64,000 nt of DNA, taken from positions 1,016-65,015 of the forward strand of contig JAGCGA010000033.1 in the NCBI GenBank assembly GCA_017649855.1, read 5' to 3'. This document shows, one piece after another, positions 1,430 through 60,948 of the stretch. Both the position numbers and the translations under genes were made by a program. The notes below the pieces were generated by a model. It made no database searches, had not been told where the DNA came from, and worked only from the letters and a program-made list of their open reading frames with translations. Source of the DNA: Bacteroidales bacterium (GTDB taxonomy: Bacteria; Bacteroidota; Bacteroidia; Bacteroidales; WCHB1-69). Each line of letters opens with the position of its first letter. The first letter of the stretch is position 1.

Positions 1430-1542
1430 CAAAAAATTACTTATACGGTTGTAAATAACTGAAAACTAACAACTGACAACTGATACAGGTATCTAGTTTC
1501 CATTTTTTTATACATTTGCCGCATAATTTAAAACAATCGAAA

Positions 1543-3431: not shown

Positions 3432-3486
3432 ATTTTTCTTGTTATTGAAAAATCATTCAATATACACCACATTATCATCACATCCA

Positions 3487-4218
3487 CTATTTTTCTTTTG
3501 ATTTCCCTCCCGCAGCATCTTCTGAAATTGGCAACGCAATAAATTCATTCAATTCCTTTCTTCTCAATCTCCATTGAGGAAGATAGTGCGTTAGGATGGC
3601 TTCAAACATTTTATTGTGATTCTTGACCTTCAAATGGGTCAATTCATGTGCCACAACATATTCAATACAGGAACGCGGAACCCTTGCAAGTTCCAAATTG
3701 AAGAGTAAATGCCTTTTCTTGTTGATGCAACTCCCCCATTGTGAACGCATTAATTTGACCTCCCATGTGACATCGGGCTCTTCCATTTTATTGGTCCATT
3801 CAGCAACCATCTCGGACAACAATGACTTTAATTCTCTCCTTTGCCATTCTCTTAGCACCTCTGCACGATGTTCAGTTGTCGTCCCTGGCTGGACTGTCAT
3901 TATTAACCAATCACCCTGTTTGGTAATTGTATGACTACATCTCGGTTTTTCCTCAATACGAAGACGGTAGCGTTGCCCGAAATGGTAGTATGTCTCGCCA
4001 GTCTCATAATTACGTTCGGTTTGCCTTGCTTGTTCAAGAACTTCCCTTCGTTTTTCTTCTATCCATTCCCATTTTGATATAATAAACGAACGAATATCAT
4101 TATCATCAAGATATTCGGGTGAAGACACGTGAACACGAGCATCTGGAGGATAAACCGCCAAATGCAAGTTTTTTATATTCTTGCGTTCTACTGCTATCTC
4201 AATTCCGTTCAGTTCCAT
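3487..4218 (-). CDS. DUF45/YgjP-like (M48-family) zinc metallopeptidase associated with type I R-M
   Basis: It carries the WGSC motif and HELTHL (HExxH). Its ATG at 4218 overlaps the hsdR stop codon as TGATG. The track's TTG start at 4221 is an alternative. Confidence 0.8.
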   Translation of the reverse strand: MELNGIEIAVERKNIKNLHLAVYPPDARVHVSSPEYLDDNDIRSFIISKWEWIEEKRREVLEQARQTERNYETGETYYHFGQRYRLRIEEKPRCSHTITKQGDWLIMTVQPGTTTEHRAEVLREWQRRELKSLLSEMVAEWTNKMEEPDVTWEVKLMRSQWGSCINKKRHLLFNLELARVPRSCIEYVVAHELTHLKVKNHNKMFEAILTHYLPQWRLRRKELNEFIALPISEDAAGGKSKEK

Positions 4219-15988: not shown

Positions 15989-16100
15989 ACATTTTTTTCG
16001 GGAAAACAAGCATCCTAAACACCCTATTTTAACATACGCCTCCCAACTATATACTCATGCGCCGAGTGGCGGACATGATGCTTATCATGAAAAATTTCAT

Positions 16101-16108
16101 TATGTTTG
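16101..16108 (+). promoter_or_regulatory. -7 promoter box TATGTTTG
   Basis: A TAnnTTTG match lies upstream of the protease ATG at 16204. This argues against the start at 16057 in the track. Confidence 0.4.
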
Positions 16109-16203
16109 CCGCGCCGTTCGTCTCCTGTCTTATCCATACGACCTCGCAGGGAGGGATGGCACCCAAAACGTTTATCTACAGAGGTCCACATCTTACCATC
16201 ACA

Positions 16204-17745
16204 ATGAAGAACACACTACGTTTTTTGCTCATCCTGATGACAGCCTGCCTTTGCGGCACGACTAATGCCCAACCCGCCACCGAGCTGACCAACCTGGTGA
16301 TCTTCCTCCGCTTCGCCGACGACGCAGAGATCACCCATCCTTTTGCGGACATAGACACCATGTTCAACGGGAAAGCCCCCGACTGCTACAGCGTCTATAA
16401 TTTCTTCAAGGAGATGACCTACGACAAAATCCACTTCAACACCGTCTATACCAACAACATACAGAACGGGGTCATCGTGTCGTATTGCGACATTCATCCA
16501 CGGGGATATTACGAGCCTTACAGTCCGACCAATCCGGAAGGCTATACGGGGAGCAATCCCTTCATGGGGGTCTCCATGCGCGAGGCGGAGCTGCTGGGAC
16601 GCGCCGTCCGTTATGTGGACTCCCTGCATCTGGTGGACAACTCCGTTGTGCTGGACGGCAACGGGGACGGGAACATCGACAACCTCAGCTTCATCGTCAA
16701 GGGAGGCGTGGGTGCGTGGGCATCCATCCTGTGGCCCCACATGGAGTTCTTCCCACACGACTCCCTCGACTACGTGGTGACCCTCAACGGCGTCCGGCCC
16801 TACACGTTCAACTTCGAATTCGAGGGGGCGGGTCCGAGCTACTTCAGGACCGATGTCTTCCGGCATGAGATGGGCCACTCTCTGGGCCTGCCGGACCTCT
16901 ACCACTACCTCAACTTCCAAGGCGTGTCGCCCGCGGGCATGTGGGACATGATGGACAACAACTATGCGCCCAACCAGATATCGGCCATATACAAAAACAA
17001 GATCCTGCACGTTGCCGACGAGCCGGTCCAAATCACGGAGGACGGCGACTACACACTGCTCAGCTCTGGGTCAAGTCCGACCCAAAGCTGCTATTACATC
17101 AAGTCGGCCATCGACCCCACGCAGTGGTATGTGCTGGAATACCGCAACTGGTACGATCCTTTTGAGGCAGGCATCCCGGGCTGCGGCCTGGTCATCGGGC
17201 GATGGAACGACACCGTGCCACTCGACTACAACGGCATGTTTGCCAACGCCTTCTTCGACTTCTACAACCAGGCGCACCAATACTGGATATTCCGTCCGGG
17301 CAGCAGCGACGACATGACCAATGGAGACATCTGGAACGCCCATTTCAGTCAGGCCAGCGGTCGCACGAGCTTCGGTCCCGGCACCGACCCGCACCCATTC
17401 CTCACTGACGGCACGCCGGAGAACAGCTTTGAGATCACCAACATCTCAGAGAACGGCTATGAGCTGACCTTCCACGTCCACTTCTTCAACAGCGGCGTGG
17501 ACGAGCCTCTGCAGACCGAATGCCTGACCGTCTATCCGAACCCCGCCCACGACTATGTGTCCATCGACGGGCTGAGCCTCTCGCGTCTGGAATTATACAA
17601 CACCGTGGGGCAGCTGATCCTTGCCGAGGATATCCACGACCCGCACCATACGCTGTTCCTGTCCAGCCTGCCGGCGGGATCCTACCTCCTGAAGATCATC
17701 CGTGACAACGGCACCGAAACGGTCCGGAAGCTGATGAAGAGGTGA
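16204..17745 (+). CDS. secreted M6-like (immune inhibitor A-type) zinc metalloprotease with a T9SS C-terminal sorting domain
   Basis: The signal peptide MKNTLRFLLILMTACLCGTTNAQ starts at the internal Met. It has the zinc motif HEMGHSLGLPDLYH. The C-terminus LTVYPNPAHDYVSI...LPAGSYLLKI is a typical Por/T9SS CTD. Confidence 0.75.
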   Translation: MKNTLRFLLILMTACLCGTTNAQPATELTNLVIFLRFADDAEITHPFADIDTMFNGKAPDCYSVYNFFKEMTYDKIHFNTVYTNNIQNGVIVSYCDIHPRGYYEPYSPTNPEGYTGSNPFMGVSMREAELLGRAVRYVDSLHLVDNSVVLDGNGDGNIDNLSFIVKGGVGAWASILWPHMEFFPHDSLDYVVTLNGVRPYTFNFEFEGAGPSYFRTDVFRHEMGHSLGLPDLYHYLNFQGVSPAGMWDMMDNNYAPNQISAIYKNKILHVADEPVQITEDGDYTLLSSGSSPTQSCYYIKSAIDPTQWYVLEYRNWYDPFEAGIPGCGLVIGRWNDTVPLDYNGMFANAFFDFYNQAHQYWIFRPGSSDDMTNGDIWNAHFSQASGRTSFGPGTDPHPFLTDGTPENSFEITNISENGYELTFHVHFFNSGVDEPLQTECLTVYPNPAHDYVSIDGLSLSRLELYNTVGQLILAEDIHDPHHTLFLSSLPAGSYLLKIIRDNGTETVRKLMKR

Positions 17746-17749
17746 GAGG

Positions 17750-17900
17750 ATAGCCGTTGGCTATTAGCTATTAGCCATTAGCTGTTGGCCGTTAGCCGTT
17801 GGCTGTTGGGTTGGAACTTTGACTTTGACCGTTGACTTTGACCGTTGGCCGTTAGCCATGAACTAACAACTATTATCTGTTAACTATTAACTCTTAACTG
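17750..17900. repeat. array of degenerate words in a 7-nt register (agccgtt ggctatt agctatt ... gactttg ... tattaac)
   Basis: Read directly, there are about 21 consecutive units in a 7-nt (occasionally 6-nt) register with a TT core. The array starts 5 nt after the protease stop codon. Confidence 0.85.
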
Positions 17901-18052
17901 TGAAGAGTTCCTCCCTTTCGCACCGGGGTCGGGCAGTGTCCTGTAGCAAGTGATTCCCGCGGTGCGAGGATGGTTGGGGGTGCTGTCCCTCCCCAGACTG
18001 CACTGCGTTTAGTCTGGGGTTATTGAGATTACGTCTCTCCGAGACGTTGTGG
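17901..18052. repeat. GC-rich multi-hairpin element C
   Basis: It contains the hairpins tcgcaccg...cggtgcga, ccccagact...agtctgggg and acgtctc tcc gagacgt. It lies between convergent genes. Confidence 0.5.
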
Positions 18053-18255
18053 GATGGCCGTTAGCTGTTGGCCGTTAGCTGTTAGCCGTTAGCCATTAGC
18101 TATTGGCCATTAGCCATTGGCTGTTGGCCATGAACTACCAACTATTATCTATTATCTATTAACTGTTATCTATTAACTATCATTCTACCAAGCTCTTGCC
18201 CCTGCGGGGCCGCTCAAGGAATAACTATTATCTATTAACTCCTAACTTCCAACTC
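18053..18255. repeat. second 7-nt-register word array, with an embedded cccctgcgggg hairpin
   Basis: It reads ggccgtt agctgtt ggccgtt agctgtt agccgtt agccatt agctatt ggccatt agccatt ggctgtt ggccatg aactacc aactatt atctatt atctatt aactgtt atctatt aactatc, which is 18 units in perfect register. A hairpin lies at 18196-18215. Confidence 0.85.
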
Positions 18256-19035
18256 CTATCGTCTCTTCTTCTTCTTCGCTTCCCACTTCTTCACGGCCTT
18301 TTTGTAGCGTTCGCGGCAGCCTTTGATGTACTCGTCGGTGAACTTGGGGTTGCCGTACTTGGCCATGCGGCCCTGGATGATGGAGGCCTGGTTGGAGACG
18401 TAGCCAGAGGGGCGGGCCGGGTTGCGCTTCATGGGCGCAGGATAGCAGGCGGTGATGAGGGCGGCCTGGCGGGCGCTCAGATGCTTGGCGCTGCAGTGGA
18501 AATAGTGCTGTGCCGCGGCCTCTGCCCCGTAGATGCCCGGGCCCATCTCGATGACGTTGAGATAGACCTCCATGATGCGCTCCTTGCCCCAGAAGGTCTC
18601 GATCATAAAGGTGAAATAGACCTCGAAGCCCTTGCGCACCCACGAGCTCTTGGGCCAGAGGAAGACGTTCTTGGCGGTCTGCTGGGAGATGGTGCTGGCC
18701 CCGCGCTTGCGGCCATGCTCGCGCTCTTTGACGGCCTGGTCGATGGCGATGATGTCAAAGCCGCGATGGCCAAGGAAGTAGTTGTCCTCCGACGCGATGG
18801 CCGCCTTGTACATGTAGGGGGAGATCTCCTCGATGGGCTTCCACTTCTTCTCGATAGACTGGCCATCGAAGACCGCCCGACGGAGCATCAGCAGGGTCAC
18901 CGGCGGGTTGATCCAGCGGTAGGCGATCGGCAGCAGGATGCTGAGGAGGAATAATGCTAATACAATCTTACCGACAATCCTCCAAAAAGAGGATTTCTTC
19001 TTGGATTTGGGACTTTTGCTTTTCTTTGTAGCCAT
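18256..19035 (-). CDS. mtgA: monofunctional biosynthetic peptidoglycan transglycosylase (GT51)
   Basis: It has the motifs ASEDNYFLGHRGFD, GASTISQQTAKN and RIMEVYLN, plus an N-terminal basic tail and a TM anchor. Confidence 0.9.
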   Translation of the reverse strand: MATKKSKSPKSKKKSSFWRIVGKIVLALFLLSILLPIAYRWINPPVTLLMLRRAVFDGQSIEKKWKPIEEISPYMYKAAIASEDNYFLGHRGFDIIAIDQAVKEREHGRKRGASTISQQTAKNVFLWPKSSWVRKGFEVYFTFMIETFWGKERIMEVYLNVIEMGPGIYGAEAAAQHYFHCSAKHLSARQAALITACYPAPMKRNPARPSGYVSNQASIIQGRMAKYGNPKFTDEYIKGCRERYKKAVKKWEAKKKKRR

Positions 19036-20250: not shown

Positions 20251-20335
20251 TAGTTTTGGTAGTTGGTTATTAAATACTTGGCTGTTGGCCATTAGCTATT
20301 AGCTGTTGGCTAATGGCTAAAGGCTAACAGCTATC
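20251..20335. repeat. 7-nt word array that switches polarity and can fold as a long imperfect hairpin
   Basis: It reads tagtttt ggtagtt ggttatt aaatact tggctgt tggccat tagctat tagctgt tggctaa tggctaa aggctaa cagctat. The second half is the complement type of the first. Confidence 0.7.
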
Positions 20336-21643
20336 TTAATTCAGTTTCGTGATCTTGAAGCCTTGGAAAGCCCAGGCAGTGCCATCCGGGGTTCCGTTCT
20401 TGTGATAGCGCAGGGCAAACCGGAACGTGGGAGACTGGATCGCACTCAAATCCAAGGCGTTACTCCATCCGAAGGAGGTGGGGAAGACATTCAGATTGGG
20501 GTTGAAGGGATGCCAGTCGCCATGCGTGGCAGGGTCCTCGCCATCGGTGTAGGAGGTGGAGTAATAGACTTGATAGTAGTTGGCCAGGCTGCCGCCCACA
20601 TTATTCTGATGCTTGATTTCCAGGACCACATTCTCCAGAGAGTTCAGACCTGCGAGGTTGATCACCGGGGAGATGAGCCAGTCGTCACACTCAACGCTGG
20701 AGGCATTGTGGAAGATGATGTCCGTGCTTTGGAAGCTGCGGTATTGCCAAGCGTCGGTGGCCGGATAGCGGCTCCACGTGCCACTGGTCAGGCTGTTGGC
20801 ATTCACATAGTTCTCCACGAGCACCTCATCCTGCAGCACCTCCTGCACATCCTCCTTGGTACGCAGCGTGAGCTGATACTCAGAGTTATAAACGGAGAGG
20901 ATACCGTACAGGCAGTATTCTTTGTTGGCATCGATGATGATGTTGCGGAAATAGGCATAGCTGGAAGTACGCACGATGATGGGGGTGCCGTTGATATAGA
21001 CGGTACGGTCGCAGGTGAAGTCGTTGGATGCAAGCGGCTGTCCATGATGTTGGGAGTCGAACTTGCAACCATTGATTTTGACGAGGCAGTTGACATTCTC
21101 AGGGGTCAGCTGGGTAGAGCCAGTGACCTCGATAGGATGGGCGATGAAGGGATGGTTGAGGTCTGGAAGACCATCTTTGTGCAGATAACGACCCAAAGCG
21201 CTGGGGCTAATACGACCCACGGAGCCGGGGTATTTCCAGCCAACCTGGTATTTGTTGTGATAGTCGCCCACGATGAGTCCACGACAGTCCAGATAGACGG
21301 TCTGACCTACGGGGTACTCGTTATACAAGCCGGAGCGGTCGATGGAGATCTCGATGCCGCCGGTCTCGTCCTGGATGGTCAGGTACTTGTAGCAGTTGCC
21401 GCCCTGGTCGGAGCTGACGACCACAGCCTTGACGATGAAGACCTCGTCAGAGCTGCAGATGGAGTCTTGGGCGCCAGTGCCCAGATTGGGATGCATGGCC
21501 TTGATGTCGGCGATGGTATGATTGGCGGCGGGGCCATCATACACGGGCACCTGAAATTCGGGTTCCTCCCAGCGGTTGCAGGAGCAGAACAAACCAGCCA
21601 TCACGGCTGACAATATAATGATATAGGAGCTTATTCTTTTCAT
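20336..21643 (-). CDS. surface lipoprotein with a DUF5689-like OB-fold N-terminal part and a choice-of-anchor-J-like C-terminal domain
   Basis: It has a lipoprotein signal (LFCSC). It is a paralogue of the next gene, sharing segments such as GNCYK(Y/F)..I(Q/E)D.T(G)GI.I.ID.S.LY..YPVGQ.V...C.GL..GDY. Confidence 0.5.
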   Translation of the reverse strand: MKRISSYIIILSAVMAGLFCSCNRWEEPEFQVPVYDGPAANHTIADIKAMHPNLGTGAQDSICSSDEVFIVKAVVVSSDQGGNCYKYLTIQDETGGIEISIDRSGLYNEYPVGQTVYLDCRGLIVGDYHNKYQVGWKYPGSVGRISPSALGRYLHKDGLPDLNHPFIAHPIEVTGSTQLTPENVNCLVKINGCKFDSQHHGQPLASNDFTCDRTVYINGTPIIVRTSSYAYFRNIIIDANKEYCLYGILSVYNSEYQLTLRTKEDVQEVLQDEVLVENYVNANSLTSGTWSRYPATDAWQYRSFQSTDIIFHNASSVECDDWLISPVINLAGLNSLENVVLEIKHQNNVGGSLANYYQVYYSTSYTDGEDPATHGDWHPFNPNLNVFPTSFGWSNALDLSAIQSPTFRFALRYHKNGTPDGTAWAFQGFKITKLN

Positions 21644-25701: not shown

Positions 25702-25762
25702 CGACCTCGTTATAAAGGAAGAACCGAAAATCCATAAAAGAGTAGGACGAACCATTAACTGC

Positions 25763-27070
25763 ATGCTTATGAAGCTCAACTACACGAATACATCATTTGC
25801 CGTCTCAGAAGAGGCTTTGTGTGCGCACAAGGCGCTTGCCGAGCAGGCCTATCAGACCACGGTCAGCAAGAGCGGCCGCGGCAACGACTTTTTAGGCTGG
25901 GTGGACCTGCCCGCCGGAATCAGTGAAGAGGATTTCGCCACCATCGAGCGATGTGCCGACCGTTTGGCCAGCAAGTCGGAGGTGACGGTCGTCATTGGCA
26001 TCGGAGGTTCCTACCTGGGCACCCGCGCCGTGGTGGAGGCATTGCAACACTCCTTTGGCGCCATGGTGCCGCAGCAGCGCCCCTACCTGCTCTATGCCGG
26101 CAACAACATGAGTGAAGACTATCTGCACGACCTGTTGGAGGTGTTAGACAAGAAGGACTACTCTTTGATTGTGATTTCCAAGTCGGGCACCACGACGGAG
26201 CCCGCCATCGCCTTCCGGGTGCTGAAGCAGCACTGTGAGCGCAAATATGGTCTGGAGGAGGCCCGCACGCGCATCGTGGCCGTCACGGATGCCGCACGCG
26301 GCGCCCTGCGCACTCTTGCCACCCAGGAGGGCTACGACACCTTCGTCATCCCCGACGATGTGGGCGGACGCTACTCCGTGCTGACCCCCGTGGGACTGCT
26401 GCCCATCGCGGTGGCCGGCTTCTCCATCCGCAAGCTGGTGGAAGGCGCCAAGGCTATCCGCACGGAACTCCTCGCCCACCCCGCCTTCGCCGACAACCCC
26501 GCCATGCAGTATGCACTGGTACGCTATATGCTCTACAACCAAGGCCTCAAGGTGGAACTGATGACCTCCTTCGAGCCTCGTCTCTTCTACTTCGTGGAGT
26601 GGTTCAAACAGCTCTTCGGCGAGAGCGAAGGCAAAGAGCACAAGGGCATCTTCCCCGCCGGCGCCATCTTCTCCACCGACCTGCACTCCCTCGGCCAGTA
26701 CATCCAAGAAGGCACCCGCCAACTCTTCGAGACCGTGCTGACCGTCGAGAAGGCCCACCATCATGTGGAGATCCCCTTCGACGAGAAGAATACCGACGGG
26801 CTCAACTACCTGCAACATCGCAGCATCGACGAGATCTGCCATATCGCCCAGCAGGGCACCTGCCAAGCCCATGTGTCCGGCGAAGTGCCGAACATCGAGA
26901 TCACCATCCCCGAGTTGTCTGAACACTACCTGGGCGAGCTGATCTACTTCTTCGAGTTCAGCTGTGCCGTCAGCGGTTATATGCTGGATGTCAACCCGTT
27001 TGACCAACCCGGCGTGGAAGCCTATAAACGCAACATGTTCCTGCTGCTTGGCAAACCCGGTGTTAAATAA
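25763..27070 (+). CDS. pgi: glucose-6-phosphate isomerase (short, roughly 440-aa type)
   Basis: It has the motifs GNDFLGWVDLP, IGIGGSYLG, ISKSGTTTEP, GGRYSVL and GESEGK. Confidence 0.9.
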   Translation: MLMKLNYTNTSFAVSEEALCAHKALAEQAYQTTVSKSGRGNDFLGWVDLPAGISEEDFATIERCADRLASKSEVTVVIGIGGSYLGTRAVVEALQHSFGAMVPQQRPYLLYAGNNMSEDYLHDLLEVLDKKDYSLIVISKSGTTTEPAIAFRVLKQHCERKYGLEEARTRIVAVTDAARGALRTLATQEGYDTFVIPDDVGGRYSVLTPVGLLPIAVAGFSIRKLVEGAKAIRTELLAHPAFADNPAMQYALVRYMLYNQGLKVELMTSFEPRLFYFVEWFKQLFGESEGKEHKGIFPAGAIFSTDLHSLGQYIQEGTRQLFETVLTVEKAHHHVEIPFDEKNTDGLNYLQHRSIDEICHIAQQGTCQAHVSGEVPNIEITIPELSEHYLGELIYFFEFSCAVSGYMLDVNPFDQPGVEAYKRNMFLLLGKPGVK

Positions 27071-27088: not shown

Positions 27089-28564
27089 TTGGCATCGTTC
27101 ATCCTCATATTTTTTGCATTCTACATTGTGATGCTGTTCGTCATCGCGGGCCTCACCTCGCGAAAGTCGGACAACCAGTCATACTTCACCGGCAACCGGA
27201 AGTCACCCTGGTTTGTGGTGGCATACGGCATGATCGGAAGCTCCCTGTCGGGAGTCACGTTCATGTCGGTGCCAGGCGATGTTTATACCACCCAGTTCAC
27301 CTACTTCGGGGTGGTCCTGGGCTACATCCTGGGCTATATCGTCATCGCCAAGCTACTGCTACCATTATATTATAGGCTGCAGGTGACCTCCATCTACGAA
27401 TACTTGGGCATGCGGGTAGGCAAGGAGGCCCACGCCACCGGCTCGCTGCTCTTCTTCATCTCGCGCCTGTTCGGTTCTGCATTACGCATGTATCTGGTTA
27501 TCTTCGTCTTGCAGATCTTCGTCTTCGACGGGTTGGGCATCCCCATCTGGCTGACCTCCATTGTGATGATCGCCATCATCCTGTTCTACACCTTCCGCAG
27601 CGGCCTCCGCACGGTGGTGTGGACCGACTTGTTGCAGACCACCTTCCTCATCGGGGCACTCGTCATCACGCTGATCGTCATCCTGCGCACCATGGACTCC
27701 TCCTTCTCGCAACTCTGGTCGGAGATGGCCACCGCCGGCAAGGGCGGGAGCGACTGCCGACTGATCTGGAACACCGACTGGCATAGCAACTGCTACTTCC
27801 TGAAGCAGATCATCGGCGGCATGTTCATCACCATCGCCATGACGGGCTTGGACCAGGACATGATGCAGAAGAACCTGTCGTGCAAGTCGTTGAAAGACGC
27901 CCAGCGCAATATGTTCTCTTTCACGGGTATTCTGGTGGTTGTCAACGTGCTCTTCCTGTTGTTGGGTGGCCTGCTACTGGTATTTGCCCAGCGCAATGGC
28001 ATCGACATCGCGAATATGCCGACCGACCGCATCTATCCCGAGATTGCCTTCCGCTATATCGGCAAGCTAGGCGCCATCGTCTTCATCTTCGGCCTTATCT
28101 CTGCCGGTTTCTCCTCTGCCGACGGCACCTTCACGGCACTGACCACCTCCGTGTGCTACGACATCCTCAAGATTCAGAATCGTCAGTATTCGGAAGAGCG
28201 CCAGGCCCGCATCCGCCGGATGGTGCACATCGTCATCGCCCTACTCTTCCTGTCGGTCATCATCTTCGTGTCAAGCCATCACAAAGATGCGCTCATCCGC
28301 ATCATCTTCAAGGTGGCCTCCTACACTTACGGTCCGCTGCTGGGGCTCTTCATCTTCGGCATGTTCACCCAGCGGGAGATTCCGGCCGGGCGCCGCTTCA
28401 TGATACCTGTCATCTCTCTGGTCATCCCCGCTTTCTGCTATGTGCTGGCCAGCTATTCGCAGCAGTGGTTCAACGGCTTCCAATTCGGCTATGAATTGCT
28501 GATTGTCAATGGATTATTGGTATTCCTCAGCCTGTTAGCCATTAGTAAGAAGAGTGATCAGTGA
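27089..28564 (+). CDS. sodium:solute symporter (SSF) family transporter
   Basis: It is a 491-aa polytopic membrane protein with a TTG start, about 13 hydrophobic segments, and SSF-like motifs (FFTGNRKSPW.., GLRTVVWTD). Confidence 0.7.
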   Translation: MASFILIFFAFYIVMLFVIAGLTSRKSDNQSYFTGNRKSPWFVVAYGMIGSSLSGVTFMSVPGDVYTTQFTYFGVVLGYILGYIVIAKLLLPLYYRLQVTSIYEYLGMRVGKEAHATGSLLFFISRLFGSALRMYLVIFVLQIFVFDGLGIPIWLTSIVMIAIILFYTFRSGLRTVVWTDLLQTTFLIGALVITLIVILRTMDSSFSQLWSEMATAGKGGSDCRLIWNTDWHSNCYFLKQIIGGMFITIAMTGLDQDMMQKNLSCKSLKDAQRNMFSFTGILVVVNVLFLLLGGLLLVFAQRNGIDIANMPTDRIYPEIAFRYIGKLGAIVFIFGLISAGFSSADGTFTALTTSVCYDILKIQNRQYSEERQARIRRMVHIVIALLFLSVIIFVSSHHKDALIRIIFKVASYTYGPLLGLFIFGMFTQREIPAGRRFMIPVISLVIPAFCYVLASYSQQWFNGFQFGYELLIVNGLLVFLSLLAISKKSDQ

Positions 28565-28650
28565 ACAGTGATCTGTGAGGAGTTTTTTTAATGCCAACAG
28601 CTAATGGCTAACAGCCAAAGTTCAAAGTCAAAGTCAATAGTCAAAGTATA
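28553..28650. repeat. 7-nt word array (agtgatc agtgaac agtgatc ... gccaaca gctaatg gctaaca gccaaag ttcaaag tcaaagt)
   Basis: Read directly. It begins within the last codons of the symporter gene and extends toward aqpZ. Confidence 0.75.
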
Positions 28651-28689
28651 AAAACCACACACCTTATTATTAACTAAAACCTTATCATT

Positions 28690-29376
28690 ATGAAAAAATT
28701 TATCGCTGAAATGATTGGAACGTTCGTGCTGACCCTGCTGGGTTGCGGTACGGCCATGTTTCTTGGATGCGCTACGCCTGCTGGTGTAGTGGGTACAGCT
28801 ATCGCCTTCGGTTTGACCGTGGTGGCCATGGCTTACACCATTGGTGGCATCTCCGGTTGTCACATCAACCCCGCCATCACCTTGGCAGTGGCACTCTCCG
28901 GCCGTATGAGCTGGAAGGATGCTTGCGGCTACTGGATTGGCCAGGTCATTGGTGGTATCCTCGCCGGCCTCGTGCTCTTCGCACTGGTCAATGTGGTGAC
29001 TCCTTCTGCCGAAGGCATTGCTGAAGGCATGCTGGGTCTCGGCTGCAACGGCGTGGCTAACGCTGGCGGCGTATGGGGTGCTTGCCTCGTAGAGGTTATC
29101 GCCACCTTCATCTTCGTGCTCGTGGTTCTCGGCACGACCGACTCCAAGCTGGGTGCTGGCAACTTCGCCGGTCTCGCCATCGGTCTCACCCTGATCCTGG
29201 TGCACCTCGTATGCATCAACCTGACGGGTACCTCTGTGAACCCTGCACGTTCCATCGGACCGGCCCTCTTCGCTGGTGGCCAGGCCCTGTGCGACCTCTG
29301 GGTGTTCATCTGCGCTCCGCTCGTGGGTGCCGCATTGTCCGCCCTCGTATGGAAAGGCCTCGCTTGCGAGAAATAA
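28690..29376 (+). CDS. aqpZ: aquaporin Z (MIP family water channel)
   Basis: It has two NPA boxes (HINPAITLA and SVNPARSIGPA) and is 228 aa long. Confidence 0.9.
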   Translation: MKKFIAEMIGTFVLTLLGCGTAMFLGCATPAGVVGTAIAFGLTVVAMAYTIGGISGCHINPAITLAVALSGRMSWKDACGYWIGQVIGGILAGLVLFALVNVVTPSAEGIAEGMLGLGCNGVANAGGVWGACLVEVIATFIFVLVVLGTTDSKLGAGNFAGLAIGLTLILVHLVCINLTGTSVNPARSIGPALFAGGQALCDLWVFICAPLVGAALSALVWKGLACEK

Positions 29377-40680: not shown

Positions 40681-40778
40681 AATCAGTTGTCAGTTGTTAG
40701 TTAGAAGTTATAGTCAAGGTTCAAGTTGAGCTAGCTAATGGCCAATGGCTAATGGCTAACGGCTAACAGCCAACATCC
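40681..40778. repeat. 7-nt word array (cagttgt cagttgt tagttag aagttat agtcaag gttcaag ttgagct agctaat ggccaat ggctaat ggctaac ggctaac agccaac)
   Basis: It has 13 units in strict register. Its right end supplies the last three codons and the stop codon of the ispG ORF. Confidence 0.85.
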
Positions 40779-42118
40779 GTCTCCGCTATCAACGTTTCCA
40801 GCATGTCTAAAGCCTCCGGGATAGGGATCGGGTTGGTGAGTTTCTCCTTGGCTCGATAGACGCATACCAGTCCTTGGGAGGCGCCCACGATGCCATAGTC
40901 GGCATCGGCCATCTCGCCGGGTCCATTGACGATACAGCCCATCACCCCGATCTTGAGGCCGGGATGGTCGGCAAACCGTTCTTTGACCATGGCTACCACC
41001 GATTGGATGTCGTATTGGGTACGGCCGCAGGAGGGGCAGGATATGAACTCCGTCTTGCTCATCCGTATGCGGCAAGCCTGCAGGATGGTGGCCTGCAGAT
41101 CCTCCAGCTGCTGAGCCGTCATGCAGTCATTCTCCAGCACCAGGTCTTTGATATGATAACGATAGTAGGCGTAACCGGCCATAGCCGCCGCCGAGATCAT
41201 CCACTGCTCGGGGTCCGCCACAGAAGCGGAGTAATAGAGGGTTTGGCCTTTCACGACAGCCTCTTCGGGATGCAGTGTGGAGACCGTCTGCACAAGCCGA
41301 TGGGCAAAGGGAGTCTCATTCTCCGGGGGCTCCGTCAGGGATACGCGGATGGTGTCGCCCACGCCCATCAGGAGTAGCGCGCCGATGCCGGCGGCCGACT
41401 TCACCCGGCCTTCCAGACCACAGCCCGCCTCGGTGACACCGAGATGGAGGGGATATACCTGCCCACGCTGCCGCATAGCCTCGTGCAGCCGCAAGGTGGC
41501 CTCCATCATCGTCTGCACATTACTCGACTTCATGGAGATGACCATCTTGTGGAAGTCCGCCTGGTCGCAGATGTCGAGCCATTCCAAGGCCGACTGCACC
41601 ATAGCCTCCGGCGTGTTGCCATAGCGGTTCAGGATGCGGTCGCAAAGGGAGCCCTGGTTGATGCCAATCCGGAGCGCCGTGCCATGGGCCCGACAGATCT
41701 CGAACAACGGACGGGCACGCTCAGCCATCCGCCGCACCGCCTCCGCATATTCGTCGTCTGTCATCGTGAAAGAGGCAAAGACACGCTTGTCGGTGTAATT
41801 ACCAGGGTTGATGCGCACCTTCTCCACGAAGGAGGCCACCGCTTCAGCCACCTTCGGGTTGAAGTGGACATCGGCCACGATGGGGGTGTCATACCCTTTT
41901 TGGCGTAGCTGCTGCTGTATCTGGGCCAGCGGCTCCACCTCCCGCATCGTGGGCACCGTCAGGCGAACCATCTGGGCTCCGGCAGCTATCATCCGTTCGC
42001 ACTGGGCCACCGAAGCCGCCACATCCAGTGTGTCGGTGTTCGTCATCGACTGCACCACCACGGGCGCATCGCCGCCTATCGCAAGGCGGCCAATCTCGAA
42101 CTGGACATTGCTATGCAT
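40763..42118 (-). CDS. ispG: 4-hydroxy-3-methylbut-2-enyl diphosphate synthase
   Basis: It has VVVQSMTNT, RINPGN and the CPSCGRT Fe-S cluster motif. A moderate insert lies between the TIM barrel and the Fe-S domain. Confidence 0.9.
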   Translation of the reverse strand: MHSNVQFEIGRLAIGGDAPVVVQSMTNTDTLDVAASVAQCERMIAAGAQMVRLTVPTMREVEPLAQIQQQLRQKGYDTPIVADVHFNPKVAEAVASFVEKVRINPGNYTDKRVFASFTMTDDEYAEAVRRMAERARPLFEICRAHGTALRIGINQGSLCDRILNRYGNTPEAMVQSALEWLDICDQADFHKMVISMKSSNVQTMMEATLRLHEAMRQRGQVYPLHLGVTEAGCGLEGRVKSAAGIGALLLMGVGDTIRVSLTEPPENETPFAHRLVQTVSTLHPEEAVVKGQTLYYSASVADPEQWMISAAAMAGYAYYRYHIKDLVLENDCMTAQQLEDLQATILQACRIRMSKTEFISCPSCGRTQYDIQSVVAMVKERFADHPGLKIGVMGCIVNGPGEMADADYGIVGASQGLVCVYRAKEKLTNPIPIPEALDMLETLIAETDVGC

Positions 42119-43178: not shown

Positions 43179-44111
43179 CTATACGTAATAGTGCTTGGAG
43201 ATGGAAGCACATTGCTCGATGCTCTCGATGACATCGGCCATCAGCTTGGCAACGGAGACGACCCGCACCTTGCTGCACGGACGTTTCAACGGGATGGAGT
43301 CGGTAACCAGCACCGTCTCCAGCACGGAGTTCTCAATTCTCTCCAAAGCCTCACCGGAGAAGAGACCGTGTGCACACATGGCATTCACGCTCTTGGCACC
43401 CATCGCCTTGATGGCTTCCGCTGCTTTGCAGAGCGTGCCGGCCGTATCGATGATGTCATCCACCAGGATAACCTCCTTGCCACGAACGTCACCCAGGATA
43501 TGCAACGAGGCGACTTCGTTCTGTTTCTCTCTCTGCTTGAAGCCAATAGCCAGATCGCAGTTCAGAGCCTTGGCATAGGTGGAAGCACGCTTGGTACCAC
43601 CCGTGTCAGGAGAGGCAATCATAATGTCGGGATTGTTCAGACTCTGAATGTATGGAATAAACACATTGGAAGCGAAAAGATGGTCCACGGGTACCTCCAG
43701 GAATCCTTGGATCTGGTCAGCGTGCAAATCCATCGTGATCACGCGGTTCACGCCGGCAGTAGTCAGAAGGTTGCACATCAGCTTGGCACCGATGGAGGTT
43801 CTGGGTTTGTCTTTACGATCCTGACGGGCATAGCCGAAGTAAGGCATCACCGCAATGATGTTGCGCGCGGAAGCACGTTTCGCAGCATCAATGGCAATCA
43901 ACAGCTCAATGATGTTATCCGCCGGCGAGAAGGTCGGCTGGATGATGAAAACATCCTTACCACGAATGGTATCATTGAAATAAACCTGAATCTCTCCGTC
44001 TTTGAACTGGAGAATGTCCACCGGGAAAAGCGGCATGTTCAGGTGATCTGCAATACTTTTAGCTAACTCAGGATTGGCACGACCGGCCACCAATACATAG
44101 TTCTTATCCAT
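43179..44111 (-). CDS. prs: ribose-phosphate pyrophosphokinase
   Basis: It has YFGYARQDRK, MDLHADQIQGF and the PRPP loop ILVDDIIDTAGT. Confidence 0.92.
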   Translation of the reverse strand: MDKNYVLVAGRANPELAKSIADHLNMPLFPVDILQFKDGEIQVYFNDTIRGKDVFIIQPTFSPADNIIELLIAIDAAKRASARNIIAVMPYFGYARQDRKDKPRTSIGAKLMCNLLTTAGVNRVITMDLHADQIQGFLEVPVDHLFASNVFIPYIQSLNNPDIMIASPDTGGTKRASTYAKALNCDLAIGFKQREKQNEVASLHILGDVRGKEVILVDDIIDTAGTLCKAAEAIKAMGAKSVNAMCAHGLFSGEALERIENSVLETVLVTDSIPLKRPCSKVRVVSVAKLMADVIESIEQCASISKHYYV

Positions 44112-44155
44112 AACTGCTTAATATTTATTGATTTAGAAATTATCAAACCAAAGAG

Positions 44156-44163
44156 CAAAGATA
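44156..44163 (-). promoter_or_regulatory. -7 promoter box TATCTTTG for prs
   Basis: The minus strand reads TATCTTTG, about 45 nt upstream of the ATG at 44111. Confidence 0.4.
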
Positions 44164-44220
44164 CTCATACTCTCGTTAGCCCGCAATTAAAAAATATAAG
44201 AACTTATCAACACTTAAAGA

Positions 44221-44310
44221 TGGCTGTTAGCCATCAGCTATTAGCTGTTAGCCATTGGCTAGTTAAACTATGAACCTTGACTTTGAACTTTGACTAAAAC
44301 TGATAACTGC
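44221..44310. repeat. 7-nt word array (ggctgtt agccatc agctatt agctgtt agccatt ggctagt taaacta tgaacct tgacttt gaacttt gactaaa actgata actgcct)
   Basis: Read directly. It lies between the prfB stop codon and the prs promoter. Confidence 0.85.
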
Positions 44311-44311
44311 C

Positions 44312-45395
44312 TCAGTGTTCTTGCATCAGGTAGGCCTTGATGAAATCATCGATTTCGCCATCCATAACGGCATTCACATTGCCGGTCTCGTAGCCGGTAC
44401 GGAGGTCTTTGACCATCTTGTAGGGTTGCATCACATAGCTGCGGATCTGGCTACCCCACTCGATCTTTTTCTTGGAGCCTTCTATCTCGGCCATCTTCTC
44501 ACGCTTCTTCTCCAGTTCCAGCTGATAGAGGCGGGAGCGCAACATCGTCATCGCCATCTCCCGGTTTTGGTGTTGGAAGCGGGTTACCTGACACTCCACG
44601 ATGATGCCGGAAGGATGGTGGTGCAGACGGACGGCGGTTTCCACCTTGTTGACATTCTGTCCGCCGTGCCCGCTCGAGCGGTAGGTGTCCCAGCTGATGT
44701 CGGCGGGGTTGATGTCGATGACAATATCGTCATTGACAATAGGATAGGCGAACACGGAGGCGAAGGAGGTATGGCGACGGTTCGCGGAGTCGAAGGGAGA
44801 GAGGCGCACCAGCCGGTGGACGCCGATCTCGCTGCGCAGATAGCCATACGCATAGGGGCCTTCCACCTCGACGGAGACAGACTTGACGCCTGCCACATCC
44901 CCATCCTGCTGGTCCAGCATCTTGGTCTTAAAGCCATTACGCTCTGCCCAGCGCAGATACATGCGCAGGAGCATCTCTGCCCAGTCGCAACTCTCCGTGC
45001 CACCGGCACCCGCATTGATGGTGATTACCGCATTGAGGGAGTCCTCCTCATTGCGCATCATATTGCGAAACTCCAACTTCTCAACCATCTGGGTCAGACG
45101 CTGGAAGGACTGCTCCACCTCTTCTTCGGTGGCCTCGCCCGCCTCCAGGAAGTCATTGAGGATGGTCAGTTCTTCGCCTTGCTCAGCGGCTTGTTCATAG
45201 TCTTTGACCCATGCCTTGACCAAGGACATCTCCCGCAGCAACTGCTCTGCCTTCTTGGGATCATCCCAGAAGTCGGCCTGCTGGCTGATCTGTTCCTTTT
45301 CGGCTATCTCGGCCTGTTTCGCATCGATGTCAAAGATACCTCCTTAGCTCACCGAGCCTGTTAAGGATACTTTTTATCTGGTCGTTCGTTATCAT
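44312..45395 (-). CDS. prfB: peptide chain release factor 2, expressed through a programmed +1 frameshift
   Basis: The ATG at 45395 opens a 21-codon frame ([21 protein letters not shown]) that ends in CTT TGA C (plus-strand 45329-45335) and is preceded by AGGAGG. A +1 shift continues as [14 protein letters not shown]... into the 44312-45241 ORF, which carries SPF and GGQ ([10 protein letters not shown]). Confidence 0.92.
45329..45335 (-). promoter_or_regulatory. RF2 autoregulatory +1 frameshift site CUU UGA C
   Basis: The minus strand reads AGGAGG TAT CTT TGA C. The in-frame TGA occupies 45332-45330. Confidence 0.9.
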
Positions 45396-56593: not shown

Positions 56594-56598
56594 GACCA

Positions 56599-56672
56599 TT
56601 GAAAATAAAAATTGAAAATTGGAAGAATAGAAACGGCTTTCTCAACCTCCAATTTTCAATTTCAATTCTGCA
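56599..56672. terminator. bidirectional hairpin terminator built from 7-nt words
   Basis: attgaaaattgga (56611-56623) pairs with tccaattttcaat (56648-56660). On the minus strand the stem is followed by TTTTTATTTT. It lies between convergent genes. Confidence 0.6.
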
Positions 56673-56685
56673 TCTTCAACTATGG

Positions 56686-59605: not shown

Positions 59606-60004
59606 ATGGAAGAGAAAAAAACATCCATGATCCGATTGAGAATGAGCTCTCAAGACGCTCATTATGGTGGTAACTTAGTAGATGGCGCCCACATGCTGGC
59701 CTTGTTTGGCGATGTGGCTACCGAATTGCTCATCATGCAAGATGGCGACGAGGGTCTGTTCTGCGCCTACGACAATGTGGAATTCCTGGCACCGGTTTAT
59801 GCCGGCGACTATATCGAGGCTGTCGGTGAGATCACCAAGGTGGGCAACACCTCCCGCAAGATGGTCTTTGAGGCCCGCAAGGTCATCGCCCCGCGTCCTG
59901 ACATCAGCGCTTCTGCCGCCGACGTGCTCCCCGAGCCTATCGTCGTCTGCCGCGCCTCCGGCACCTGCGTGGTCCCCAAACAATGCCAAAGAAAAAATGT
60001 TTAA
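59606..60004 (+). CDS. kal: hotdog-fold protein, 3-aminobutyryl-CoA ammonia-lyase (Kal)-like
   Basis: It has the size of a 132-aa hotdog-fold protein. The segment [23 protein letters not shown] and its adjacency to a Kce-type gene fit the lysine-fermentation kal. Confidence 0.5.
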
Positions 60005-60117
60005 TTGTTTAACTGTTTAATTGTTTAAGCATAAATTGCTTTATTATACAGAGAATATTCAGCACCGAACAATAACATTTTCAACATTTCATCAATTCAA
60101 CAATTCAACTATTAACA
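60001..60117. repeat. AT-rich 7-nt word arrays (taattgt ttaactg tttaatt gtttaag ... ttcaaca tttcatc aattcaa caattca actatta)
   Basis: Read directly between kal and kce. Confidence 0.6.
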
Positions 60118-60948
60118 ATGGATAAACTGATCATTACCGCCGCTATTTGCGGTGCGGAAGTAACGAAAGAACAGAACCCCGCCGTGCCTTACACGGTGGA
60201 AGAGATTGTCAAAGAGGCCAAGTCGGCAGTCGATGCCGGAGCTGCCATCGTGCACCTGCACGTACGTGAAGACGACGGCACGCCGACTCAGAGTCGCGAT
60301 CGCTTCCAAGAGTGCGAGGAGGCCATCTACAAGGCATGTCCCAACGTCATCCTGATCCCGTCCACGGGTGGTGCTGTGGGCATGACTCCCGACGAACGTC
60401 TGCAGTCCACCGACACCACTCCCATCCCGGAGATGGCCACCTTGGACTGTGGTACCTGCAACTTCGGGGATGAGATCTTCGACAACACCATGCCGACGAT
60501 GCGCGCCTTTGGCAAACGCATGATCGAACGTGGCATCAAGCCCGAGTACGAGTGCTTTGAGATGGGCCATCTGGACACCATCCTGACAATGGCTCGCAAG
60601 GGTGAGGTGCCCGGCACGCCCATGCAGTTCAACTTCGTCTTAGGCGTTCCCGGCTGCACGCCTGCCACGGTGCCCAACCTCTGCTGGCTTGTCCAGAACA
60701 TCCCGGCAGGCTCCACCTGGACCTGCACCGGCATCGGCCGCCACGCCTTCACCCTCGCCGCTCCCACCATCGTGATGGGCGGCAACGTGCGCGTGGGCTT
60801 TGAAGACAACCTCTACCTCGAAAGAGGCGTCCTCGCCAAGTCCAACGGCGAACTCGTGGACAAGGTCGTCCGCATGGCCAAGCTGCTCGGCCGCCAGGTG
60901 GCCACCTCCGACGAAGCCCGCGAGATCCTCGGCCTCGCCAAGAGATAG
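60118..60948 (+). CDS. kce: 3-keto-5-aminohexanoate cleavage enzyme (BKACE/DUF849 family)
   Basis: The N-terminus LIITAAICGAEVTKEQNPAVPYTVEEI, the segment IVHLHVRED and the 276-aa size are typical of Kce. Confidence 0.75.
   Translation: MDKLIITAAICGAEVTKEQNPAVPYTVEEIVKEAKSAVDAGAAIVHLHVREDDGTPTQSRDRFQECEEAIYKACPNVILIPSTGGAVGMTPDERLQSTDTTPIPEMATLDCGTCNFGDEIFDNTMPTMRAFGKRMIERGIKPEYECFEMGHLDTILTMARKGEVPGTPMQFNFVLGVPGCTPATVPNLCWLVQNIPAGSTWTCTGIGRHAFTLAAPTIVMGGNVRVGFEDNLYLERGVLAKSNGELVDKVVRMAKLLGRQVATSDEAREILGLAKR

Follow-up and report, generated by a model that had tools for sequence, protein, structure and literature searches.

What are the runs of 7-nt words that lie between the genes of this genome, and do they do anything for the genes they separate? 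The question is raised by a 510-bp interval (17746-18255) in the DNA analysed here, a stretch of 64,000 nucleotides of contig JAGCGA010000033.1 from a Bacteroidales bacterium, called the window below. The interval lies between the convergent genes 16057-17745, whose product carries a sorting tail of the type IX secretion system, and 18256-19035, which encodes a transglycosylase, and it is a mosaic of heptamer arrays, the 153-nt core of a dispersed element and a repetitive extragenic palindromic (REP) hairpin. An initial annotation had reported arrays of degenerate words in a 7-nt register across core intergenic DNA and had offered three explanations, namely protein-binding arrays, terminator or insulator structures and slippage-generated spacer DNA. 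We analysed the arrays in the whole assembly (G000; 2.36 Mb in 43 contigs, 51% G+C, 95.5% complete) and in the orthologous gaps of four genomes of the same genus (G001, G015, G011 and G004). Our findings make it probable that they are heptameric, less often octameric, repeats of a class known elsewhere as short tandemly repeated repetitive (STRR) sequences or long simple sequence repeats (LSSR), i.e. slippage-prone, fast-turnover and largely dispensable spacer DNA that is filtered by selection at gene boundaries.

The periodicity is real and genome-wide rather than restricted to the window. Arrays were called in the intergenic DNA of the whole assembly where at least 20 of 28 positions matched at a given lag, and block shuffles preserving composition served as control. 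There were 164 lag-7 arrays, against about one in the shuffles, and at the same threshold 42 arrays at lag 8, 18 at lag 6 and no more than three at any other lag. At a stricter threshold, 76 of 80 lag-7 arrays were intergenic and almost none were coding. The autocorrelation check proposed in the initial annotation gave a bump at lags 7 and 14, in intergenic DNA only, and Tandem Repeats Finder (TRF) returned 248 intergenic rows of period 7, 82 of period 8 and 31 of period 6. Arrays account for about 4% of the intergenic DNA of G000. Short tandem arrays are present at all nine sites listed initially, one of which (60001-60117) runs in an 8-nt rather than a 7-nt register, with two 8-nt arrays on the plus strand of 59998-60119, TGTTTAAT past a stop codon and TTCAACAA ahead of a start codon. 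The dominant word families are GCYRTTR (GCC-type), CAAAGTY, AACTNNN, CACTGAT and ATCTATT, and each family combines a constant 4-5-nt core with two or three variable positions (GC..TT., AACT..., CACT...). As had been stated, these are not CRISPRs: units of 7-8 nt follow one another head to tail with no unique spacers, whereas a CRISPR has 24-50-nt repeats and unique spacers of similar length.

The comparison of orthologous gaps within the genus revealed a fast turnover of arrays. Gap 40681-40762 holds an 82-nt array in G000, is 2 nt long in G001 and contains a different array of 115 nt in G015. In gap 20252-20335, the inverted pair of G000 has one more unit on each arm in G001, and the gap is reduced to 30 nt in G015 and 31 nt in G011, with no array in either. 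The array in gap 28565-28690 is shorter in G001 (four GCC units and one CAAAGT unit) and absent from G015 and G004; here the arrays differ between genomes, but the 30-nt leader beside the start codon is conserved. Gap 44067-44311 contains GCC, GAC and AACT words in G000, fewer units in G001, 17 AACTNNN units in G015 and none in G011. The 8-mer arrays of gap 60005-60117 have their counterparts in other 8-mer words in G001 and shorter 8-mer arrays in G015, and the gaps of G011 and G004 are 41 and 19 nt long and free of arrays. Since an array of one genome can be missing, longer or shorter by whole units, or made of other words in a close relative, individual arrays are dispensable. Among the three explanations offered initially, slippage-generated spacer DNA therefore fits best, given the whole-unit changes, the replacement of words and the absence of arrays in close relatives.

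Two of these gaps deserve a separate remark. The additional unit found in G001 on both arms of 20275-20335 keeps the hairpin symmetric, a single case that may be coincidence. The 92-nt AATTGAA hairpin that G000 has at 56594-56685 corresponds, in the orthologous gap of G001, to 337 nt of 8-9-nt repeats (CGCAAAGG / CACAAAGG, punctuated by GGGGATTACC), and the same AAAGGCAC-type units occur in G000 too.

The density of lag-7 arrays per 100 kb is 8.5 in G000, 4.1 in G011 and 1.1 in G004, and G011 and G004 use another vocabulary, of GAATTTA / ATTCCTA words. Beyond the genus, we surveyed 80 ispG loci of diverse Bacteroidales (485 kb), which contained 48 lag-7 arrays distributed over 25 loci, 15 at lag 8 and four at lag 6; the words were lineage-specific, and several arrays lay directly past the ispG stop codon. 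Four GCYRTTR units in a row were found in 24 of 301 genomes of the order and in 22 of 208 sampled genera, with a patchy distribution in which G000 was the richest. In the survey of ispG loci, heptamer-periodic tracts were also seen within the ispG match of Xylanibacter ruminicola Ga6B6 (locus L097, 3471-3517) and of loci L083, L093, L095, L100 and L140 (at about 3460-3540), at a shared position and with species-specific words. The open reading frame (ORF) reads through the tract in L097 (...NLVINSSTFKDQSSKLVELS...), the only locus for which continuity was established, indicating that heptamer tracts can survive inside a tolerant protein linker.

The arrays also follow rules of placement. Among gaps of at least 40 nt in G000, the share with arrays is 17% for the tandem and convergent types alike and 6.5% for the divergent type, and the nearest gene end is a stop for 126 arrays and a start for 59. 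Arrays abut or overlap stop codons, with tracts starting between -19 and +13 nt around the stop, and because some start up to 19 nt inside the gene, certain C-terminal codons and stop codons are array-encoded. In ispG (40763-40785) and an SSF symporter gene (28543-28564), for example, the last codons and the stop are the first repeat units; array turnover can alter protein C-termini and ORF ends. Some operon spacers consist wholly of one array.

Orientation follows a rule as well. Arrays past stops, read in sense, are C-poor and T-rich (TAGCCAT, TAAGAGT, CAGTGAT, CAGTTAG), and arrays ahead of starts are their reverse complements, G-poor and A-rich (TAATGGC, TTAACTC, GATCACT, AACTGAC). These two orientations are one geometric rule, by which the 5' end of the G+T-rich strand lies at the nearest ORF, in whichever direction that ORF is read. 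The rule is followed by 124 of 177 arrays (73 of 109 beside stops, 51 of 68 beside starts), which makes it a tendency of about 70% and not a strict law. All eight inverted GCC-type pairs have the T-form first and the A-form second, and none has the reverse order. A replication-strand bias was rejected as the cause of the polarity, as local GC skew agrees with it in only 78 of 177 arrays. At the level of the words, 144 units carry a stop codon on both strands where 80.5 are expected from permuted units, a 1.8-fold enrichment that is independent of ORF calls, and 38 units contain ATG where 65 are expected. As the unit length of 7 is coprime to 3, stops on both strands mean that all six frames are closed.

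Taken together, these observations would fit the following scenario for slippage-prone spacer DNA. Arrays would accumulate where selection tolerates them, that is, in untranslated DNA at gene ends, chiefly 3' ends, and would grow and shrink through replication slippage. In the GCC family slippage may be helped by the self-complementary RGCY core, which could allow a single strand to fold back; GCC arrays do self-fold through these cores (z-scores of -2.9 to -4.25). The conserved junction sequence found at eight loci, described below, points to some copying between loci, and occasional events of this kind may have spread composite arrays. Selection at gene boundaries would then filter words and orientations, leaving the features that we observe, i.e. 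two-strand stops, few ATGs, a G-poor sense strand ahead of starts and promoters free of arrays. The stable hairpins of inverted arms may serve as 3'-end or terminator-like structures at some loci, probably as a by-product and not as the raison d'être of the class.

Several findings weigh against this interpretation. Adjacent units in GCC arrays are identical at a frequency of 0.151, compared with 0.139 +/- 0.016 after shuffling, so that there is no trace of recent unit duplication, and all eight GC[CT][AG]TT[AG] variants are common. With such a random unit order, the arrays do not look as if one unit had recently been duplicated, even though they arose after the split from G015, and arrays that are missing from a relative 9-17% diverged cannot have become so mixed by point mutation alone. 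No polar gradient of identity was detected, lag-7 identity being 0.698 and 0.697 in the two array halves, which gives polar growth no support. Furthermore, plain slippage explains neither the polarity of 124 of 177 arrays nor the uniform direction of the eight inverted pairs, and local GC skew explains neither of them. The recurrence of GCYRTTR in 22 of 208 genera hints at a constraint on the pattern or at transfer.

Three further candidate mechanisms were considered and rejected. A loss of slippage suppressors does not account for the arrays, as XseA, RecJ and MutS are present in the array-rich G000, G001 and G015 and in the array-poorer G011 and G004. Variation through transitions only, as expected from deamination, fits only the GCC family, and that loosely (transition/transversion ratio 1.78), with 0.67 in the other families and about 1.2-1.3 in flanking DNA. 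Wholesale copying between loci is contradicted by an almost random unit order, six pairs of loci sharing at least four consecutive units where 1.5 are expected.

An alternative that we regard as unlikely, and that has several observations in its favour, is that arrays are selected RNA modules acting on the transcript as gene-boundary insulators. Past stops, they would provide back-up stop codons in all frames, and a 3' hairpin formed by GCC-type or inverted arrays would stabilise or terminate the transcript; ahead of starts, A/C-rich and G-poor words would give the unstructured leader needed by the Shine-Dalgarno-independent initiation of Bacteroidota. The 1.8-fold enrichment of two-strand stops, the depletion of ATG and the operon spacers made of a single array are what this explanation predicts, and so is the strand composition: past stops G exceeds C in 59 arrays and the reverse holds in 27, and ahead of starts C exceeds G in 23 and the reverse holds in nine. 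Array-free DNA past stops shows no such skew, and background composition was therefore rejected as its cause. Two weaker asymmetries follow the transcribed strand. At degenerate positions the sense strand favours A over G (83:39 vs 39:44, p = 0.004, a value that is overstated as units are not independent), and six of seven tandem gaps have the less stable RNA hairpin on the sense strand, as would be expected if mRNA structure were kept low. What argues against insulators is that individual arrays are dispensable and that orthologous gaps do not retain them. The polarity is independent of ORF orientation, can be stated without reference to transcription (as is also the case in PMC4692102), and holds in only about 70% of arrays.

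The same explanation can be examined at the level of RNA structure, where the initial annotation had proposed terminators or insulators at the points at which polarity flips. This stands for a subset only. All eight GCC-type flips form hairpins of -21 to -54 kcal/mol, and inverted pairs in general fold with -20 to -54 kcal/mol; the pairs at 56594-56685 and 20270-20338 reach z-scores of -4 to -6.5. Only one of the eight GCC pairs, C28:7498-7607, is followed by T8 and is thus terminator-like, and no canonical intrinsic terminator (a G+C-rich hairpin followed by a T run) was found in 17600-18400. Structure as a general feature of the class was rejected, because the presence of an array does not make a tandem gap more structured (median z -0.63 with and -0.54 without arrays). 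On a related matter, inspection by eye of the TTTG words for a sigma-A-type Bacteroidetes promoter motif revealed no consistent TAnnTTTG.

It could also be argued that the heptamer arrays of Bacteroidales, Xanthomonas and cyanobacteria are one phenomenon across phyla and have a cause of their own, be it an activity that generates them or a function at gene boundaries that is under selection. We consider this quite unlikely. Signatures of such a cause would be a polarity independent of orientation with inverted pairs that point inwards, the closure of six frames, and arrays that are 'born' as random mixtures of GCYRTTR words and not through duplication of a unit.

A further possibility, in our view very doubtful, is that arrays are variable internal modules of a mobile composite, resembling REPs and bacterial interspersed mosaic elements (BIMEs) or miniature inverted-repeat transposable elements (MITEs), which is copied from gap to gap, possibly by Y1 transposases similar to REP-associated tyrosine transposases (RAYTs), and is later remodelled by slippage. 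The interval itself is made up of several modules. On the plus strand, eight GCC-type units T[AG]GC[CT][AG]T (17751-17806) start 6 nt past the TGA (17743-17745) of gene 16057-17745; they have the T-rich orientation on the sense strand of this gene and as RNA self-fold through RGCY cores (-26.6 kcal/mol, z -3.8). These are followed by GAC-type words (GAACTTTG / GACTTTG / ACCGTTG) in an alternating 6/7-nt register with two further GCC units behind them (17814-17854, TRF periods 6 and 13), by the junction GCCATGAACTAACAAC from GCC-type to AACTATT-type words (17855-17870) and by about 4.6 units of an AACTATT-type array (17868-17901). The 153-nt core of the dispersed element, which is not an array, occupies 17905-18058. 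A second composite consists of ten GCC-type units GC[CT][AG]TT[AG] (18057-18126), the junction GCCATGAACTACCAAC with the 7-nt register kept (18127-18142) and an ATCTATT / AACTATT-type array (18143-18181). The REP-type hairpin module ATTCTACCAAGCTCTTGCCCCTGCGGGGCCGCTCAAGGAATAAC (18182-18225) comes next, and ATCTATT / AACTCCT-type heptamers (18226-18255), which are G/T/A-rich when read in the sense of the transglycosylase gene, lead up to the stop codon of that gene (18256-18258, minus strand). The perfect register claimed for the arrays is borne out at 18057-18180, where 18 units share a single 7-nt register (fold z -2.9 on the plus and -4.25 on the minus strand), and is lost at 17814-17850, where GAC words alternate between 6 and 7 nt and TRF finds a period of 13.

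Several of these modules recur elsewhere. The non-repeated 16-nt junction GCCATGAACTACCAAC links GCC and ATCTATT arrays at eight array loci of G000 (at most two mismatches), with a constant module order of GAC, GCC, junction and ATCTATT. The order GCC, GAC, AAC, which had been proposed as the usual one, is seen at 17751-17901, 44221-44310 and 40681-40778 (minus strand), whereas genome-wide the recurrent composite is this other one. Four junction composites adjoin the REP hairpin module, and GAC/GCC/AACT composite arrays precede three copies of the 153-nt element. The core of this element has about 20 copies that are 77-92% identical, of which longer ones have ends resembling terminal inverted repeats (GGTGATTATATACCTGATGGCAC ... 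GTGCCATCAGGTATATA). Its 3' half, with the hairpins CCCCAGACTGCACTGCGTTTAGTCTGGGG and ACGTCTCTCCGAGACGT, is nearly invariant; the hairpins are conserved and show little covariation, and an Rfam search gave no match in the interval or in full copies of the element.

As for REPs, the arrays themselves are rightly kept apart from them, although the interval does contain a classical one. An imperfect palindrome of 20-40 nt with extragenic copies and an association with a Y1 gene is found only in the GC-rich 44-nt module at 18182-18225 and not in the heptamer arrays. The module has 19 copies in G000, some of them in 55-nt tandem runs at two contig ends (C28:1-400 and C32:1-420), and its copies are 95-97% identical across the genus. 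The 11-nt 'spacer' of the 55-nt runs is constant, unlike the unique spacers between the 24-50-nt repeats of a CRISPR. The REP core (T/A)GCCCCTGCGGGGC, preceded by TTCTACCAAGCT, flanks a RAYT-like Y1 transposase gene (C1:64556-65030, 157 aa), and a second Y1 gene (C33:15078-15534) is surrounded by a different REP family. The copies and the core beside the Y1 gene indicate that the arrays are interspersed with a classical REP system.

The presence of arrays in tandem and convergent gaps and rarely in divergent ones is also REP-like, and the six pairs of loci that share at least four units, where 1.5 are expected, represent a slight excess of shared order. Most arrays, however, have no REP, junction or fixed ends, unit order between loci is almost random, and orthologous arrays change in place, unit by unit. 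In addition, heptamer arrays of Bacteroidales use unrelated words, and in other phyla Rehm et al. saw no association of such arrays with mobile elements (PMC4692102).

The least credible explanation, which we regard as highly improbable, is a periodic platform for a single-strand nucleic-acid-binding or nucleoid protein of which one copy would bind every 7 nt, a model put forward earlier for cold-shock proteins on TAACTGA repeats. The strict 7-nt preference, the constant core of each word family and the binding of one heptamer per CspB protein, as cited in PMC4679880, are consistent with it. Against it, the cold-shock domain CSD (PF00313) and RRM_1 (PF00076) have no matches in the 95.5%-complete G000, while ten control genomes match CSD and both domains are present in the control Bacteroides thetaiotaomicron. 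Vocabularies also vary among species within one genus, 8-mer arrays occur alongside 7-mers and arrays are dispensable.

The remaining arrays of the window illustrate the same range of contexts. Upstream of a plus-strand gene, 1451-1489 (plus strand) is an AACTGAA / AACTAAC / AACTGAC / AACTGAT array that is TAACTGA-like and G-poor. The inverted GCC-type pair at 20275-20335, T-form then A-form, forms a hairpin directly past the stop of the DUF5689 gene 20336-21643 (minus strand), and the RNA fold within 20270-20338 has -27 kcal/mol and z -6.5. At 28543-28647 (plus strand), a CAGTGAT-type array over the stop of the SSF symporter gene gives way to A-form GCC words and CAAAGT words ahead of an aquaporin gene. 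The spacer between ispG and an aminotransferase gene is filled by a composite (40683-40778, minus strand) that reads on its own strand as GCC words in T-form, including the last ispG codons and TAG, then a GAC-like stretch, then AACTGAC words up to the ATG. GCC, GAC and AACTGAT arrays occupy 44221-44310 (plus strand) between the release-factor gene (44312-45241, minus strand) and the promoter region of prs. Finally, inverted AATTGAA heptamer arms between convergent genes at 56598-56675 form a hairpin, with folds over 56594-56685 of -20.1 kcal/mol (z -4.1) on the plus and -32.0 kcal/mol (z -6.0) on the minus strand. The genes that flank window arrays are ordinary housekeeping genes such as ribBA, ispG, prs and those for the release factor and the aquaporin. 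Apart from the arrays, the window contains a match to the Rfam DUF805b RNA motif RF02914 at 25715-25748 (plus strand; 38 bits, gathering score 35.6), situated in a 282-nt divergent gap upstream of gene 25763-27070.

On a practical matter, arrays of this kind affect the handling of genome data. They break assemblies, as six of the 86 contig ends of G000 and one contig end of G001 lie in an array, and, as they encode gene tails and stop codons, they give rise to spurious ORF ends. Furthermore, they can mislead searches for regulatory motifs in metagenome-assembled genomes of rumen and gut Bacteroidales.

The initial annotation placed the arrays in a Prevotellaceae setting and knew of no described function. 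The first point is not supported by IspG, which is about 48% identical to that of Prevotella and 67% identical to that of Bacteroidales bacterium UBA1176, the nearest named relative. As to the second, the class has been described as STRR (PMC2670836), as LSSR and TAACTGA repeats (PMC4679880) and as GGGNATC repeats (PMC4692102), and it is still unexplained there; reports of heptamer repeats in bacteria go back many years, and no function has gained acceptance. Comparison with these systems and with REPs allows us to place the G000 arrays. With the REPs and BIMEs of enterobacteria and pseudomonads and their RAYTs they have in common the extragenic position at 3' ends, in tandem and convergent gaps, and a mosaic built from few motif types; in contrast to them, they are direct 7-nt tandem repeats and not 20-40-nt palindromes, mostly have no REP nearby and do not share unit order.

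Heptamers were reported as the dominant long simple repeat of prokaryotes and slippage was proposed for them (Mrazek et al. 2007, as summarised in PMC4679880). The STRR of filamentous cyanobacteria are described in PMC2670836 as 7-bp non-coding tandem repeats, often capable of forming hairpins and of unknown function; the G000 arrays share this description and differ in their units and phylum. TAACTGA repeats occur in Beggiatoaceae, cyanobacteria and five Bacteroidetes, just upstream of starts with reverse sets past stops (MacGregor 2015, PMC4679880), and cold-shock proteins were proposed to bind them. Some of the Bacteroidetes that carry them have other heptamers in the same gaps, and close relatives lack repeats (PMC4679880). 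Dominance of heptamers, intergenic arrays, orientation by gene end and loss in relatives are seen in G000 as well, together with AACTGAC / AACTGAT words ahead of starts. However, two or more exact TAACTGA units in a row occur only three times in G000 and arrays favour stops over starts by 2:1, so that an exact unit located mostly upstream of starts, which defines TAACTGA repeats, is not what the G000 arrays show.

The closest system is that of Rehm et al. 2015 (PLoS One 10:e0144275, PMC4692102), who described the heptamers GGGAATC in Xanthomonas and GGGGA(C/T)T in Nostoc. Those repeats are under-represented in coding DNA and between divergent ORFs, overlap stop codons, and have the nearest ORF on the 5' side of their G-rich strand in any ORF orientation. 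They vary in length and sequence between close relatives and are transcribed, their neighbours show no functional enrichment, their function is unknown, and the authors refer to Mrazek et al. 2007 for the idea of polymerase slippage (PMC4692102). Every feature tested is common to both systems: the 7-nt unit, the many dispersed intergenic arrays, the depletion in divergent gaps, the polarity, the overlap with stops, the variation between relatives and the lack of a link to particular gene functions. The differences are that the G000 arrays belong to another phylum and comprise many word families, in fixed mosaics with REP hairpins, and that their words are not G-tracts, cannot form a G-quadruplex and show no preference for four units. 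As the features are shared by arrays without G-tract words, G-quadruplexes are not the common denominator.

Thus, the hallmarks of heptameric simple sequence repeats, i.e. a preference for the 7-nt unit, a non-coding bias with depletion in divergent gaps, polarity and variation between relatives, are all present, and the G000 arrays are an additional, dense example of an already known and still unexplained repeat class, both genome-wide and order-wide. With wholly different words, they obey the same gene-boundary rules as the repeats of unrelated phyla, namely depletion in promoter gaps, overlap with stop codons and a G+T-rich strand that points inwards, and this shared set of rules argues for a common cause over lineage-specific regulation.

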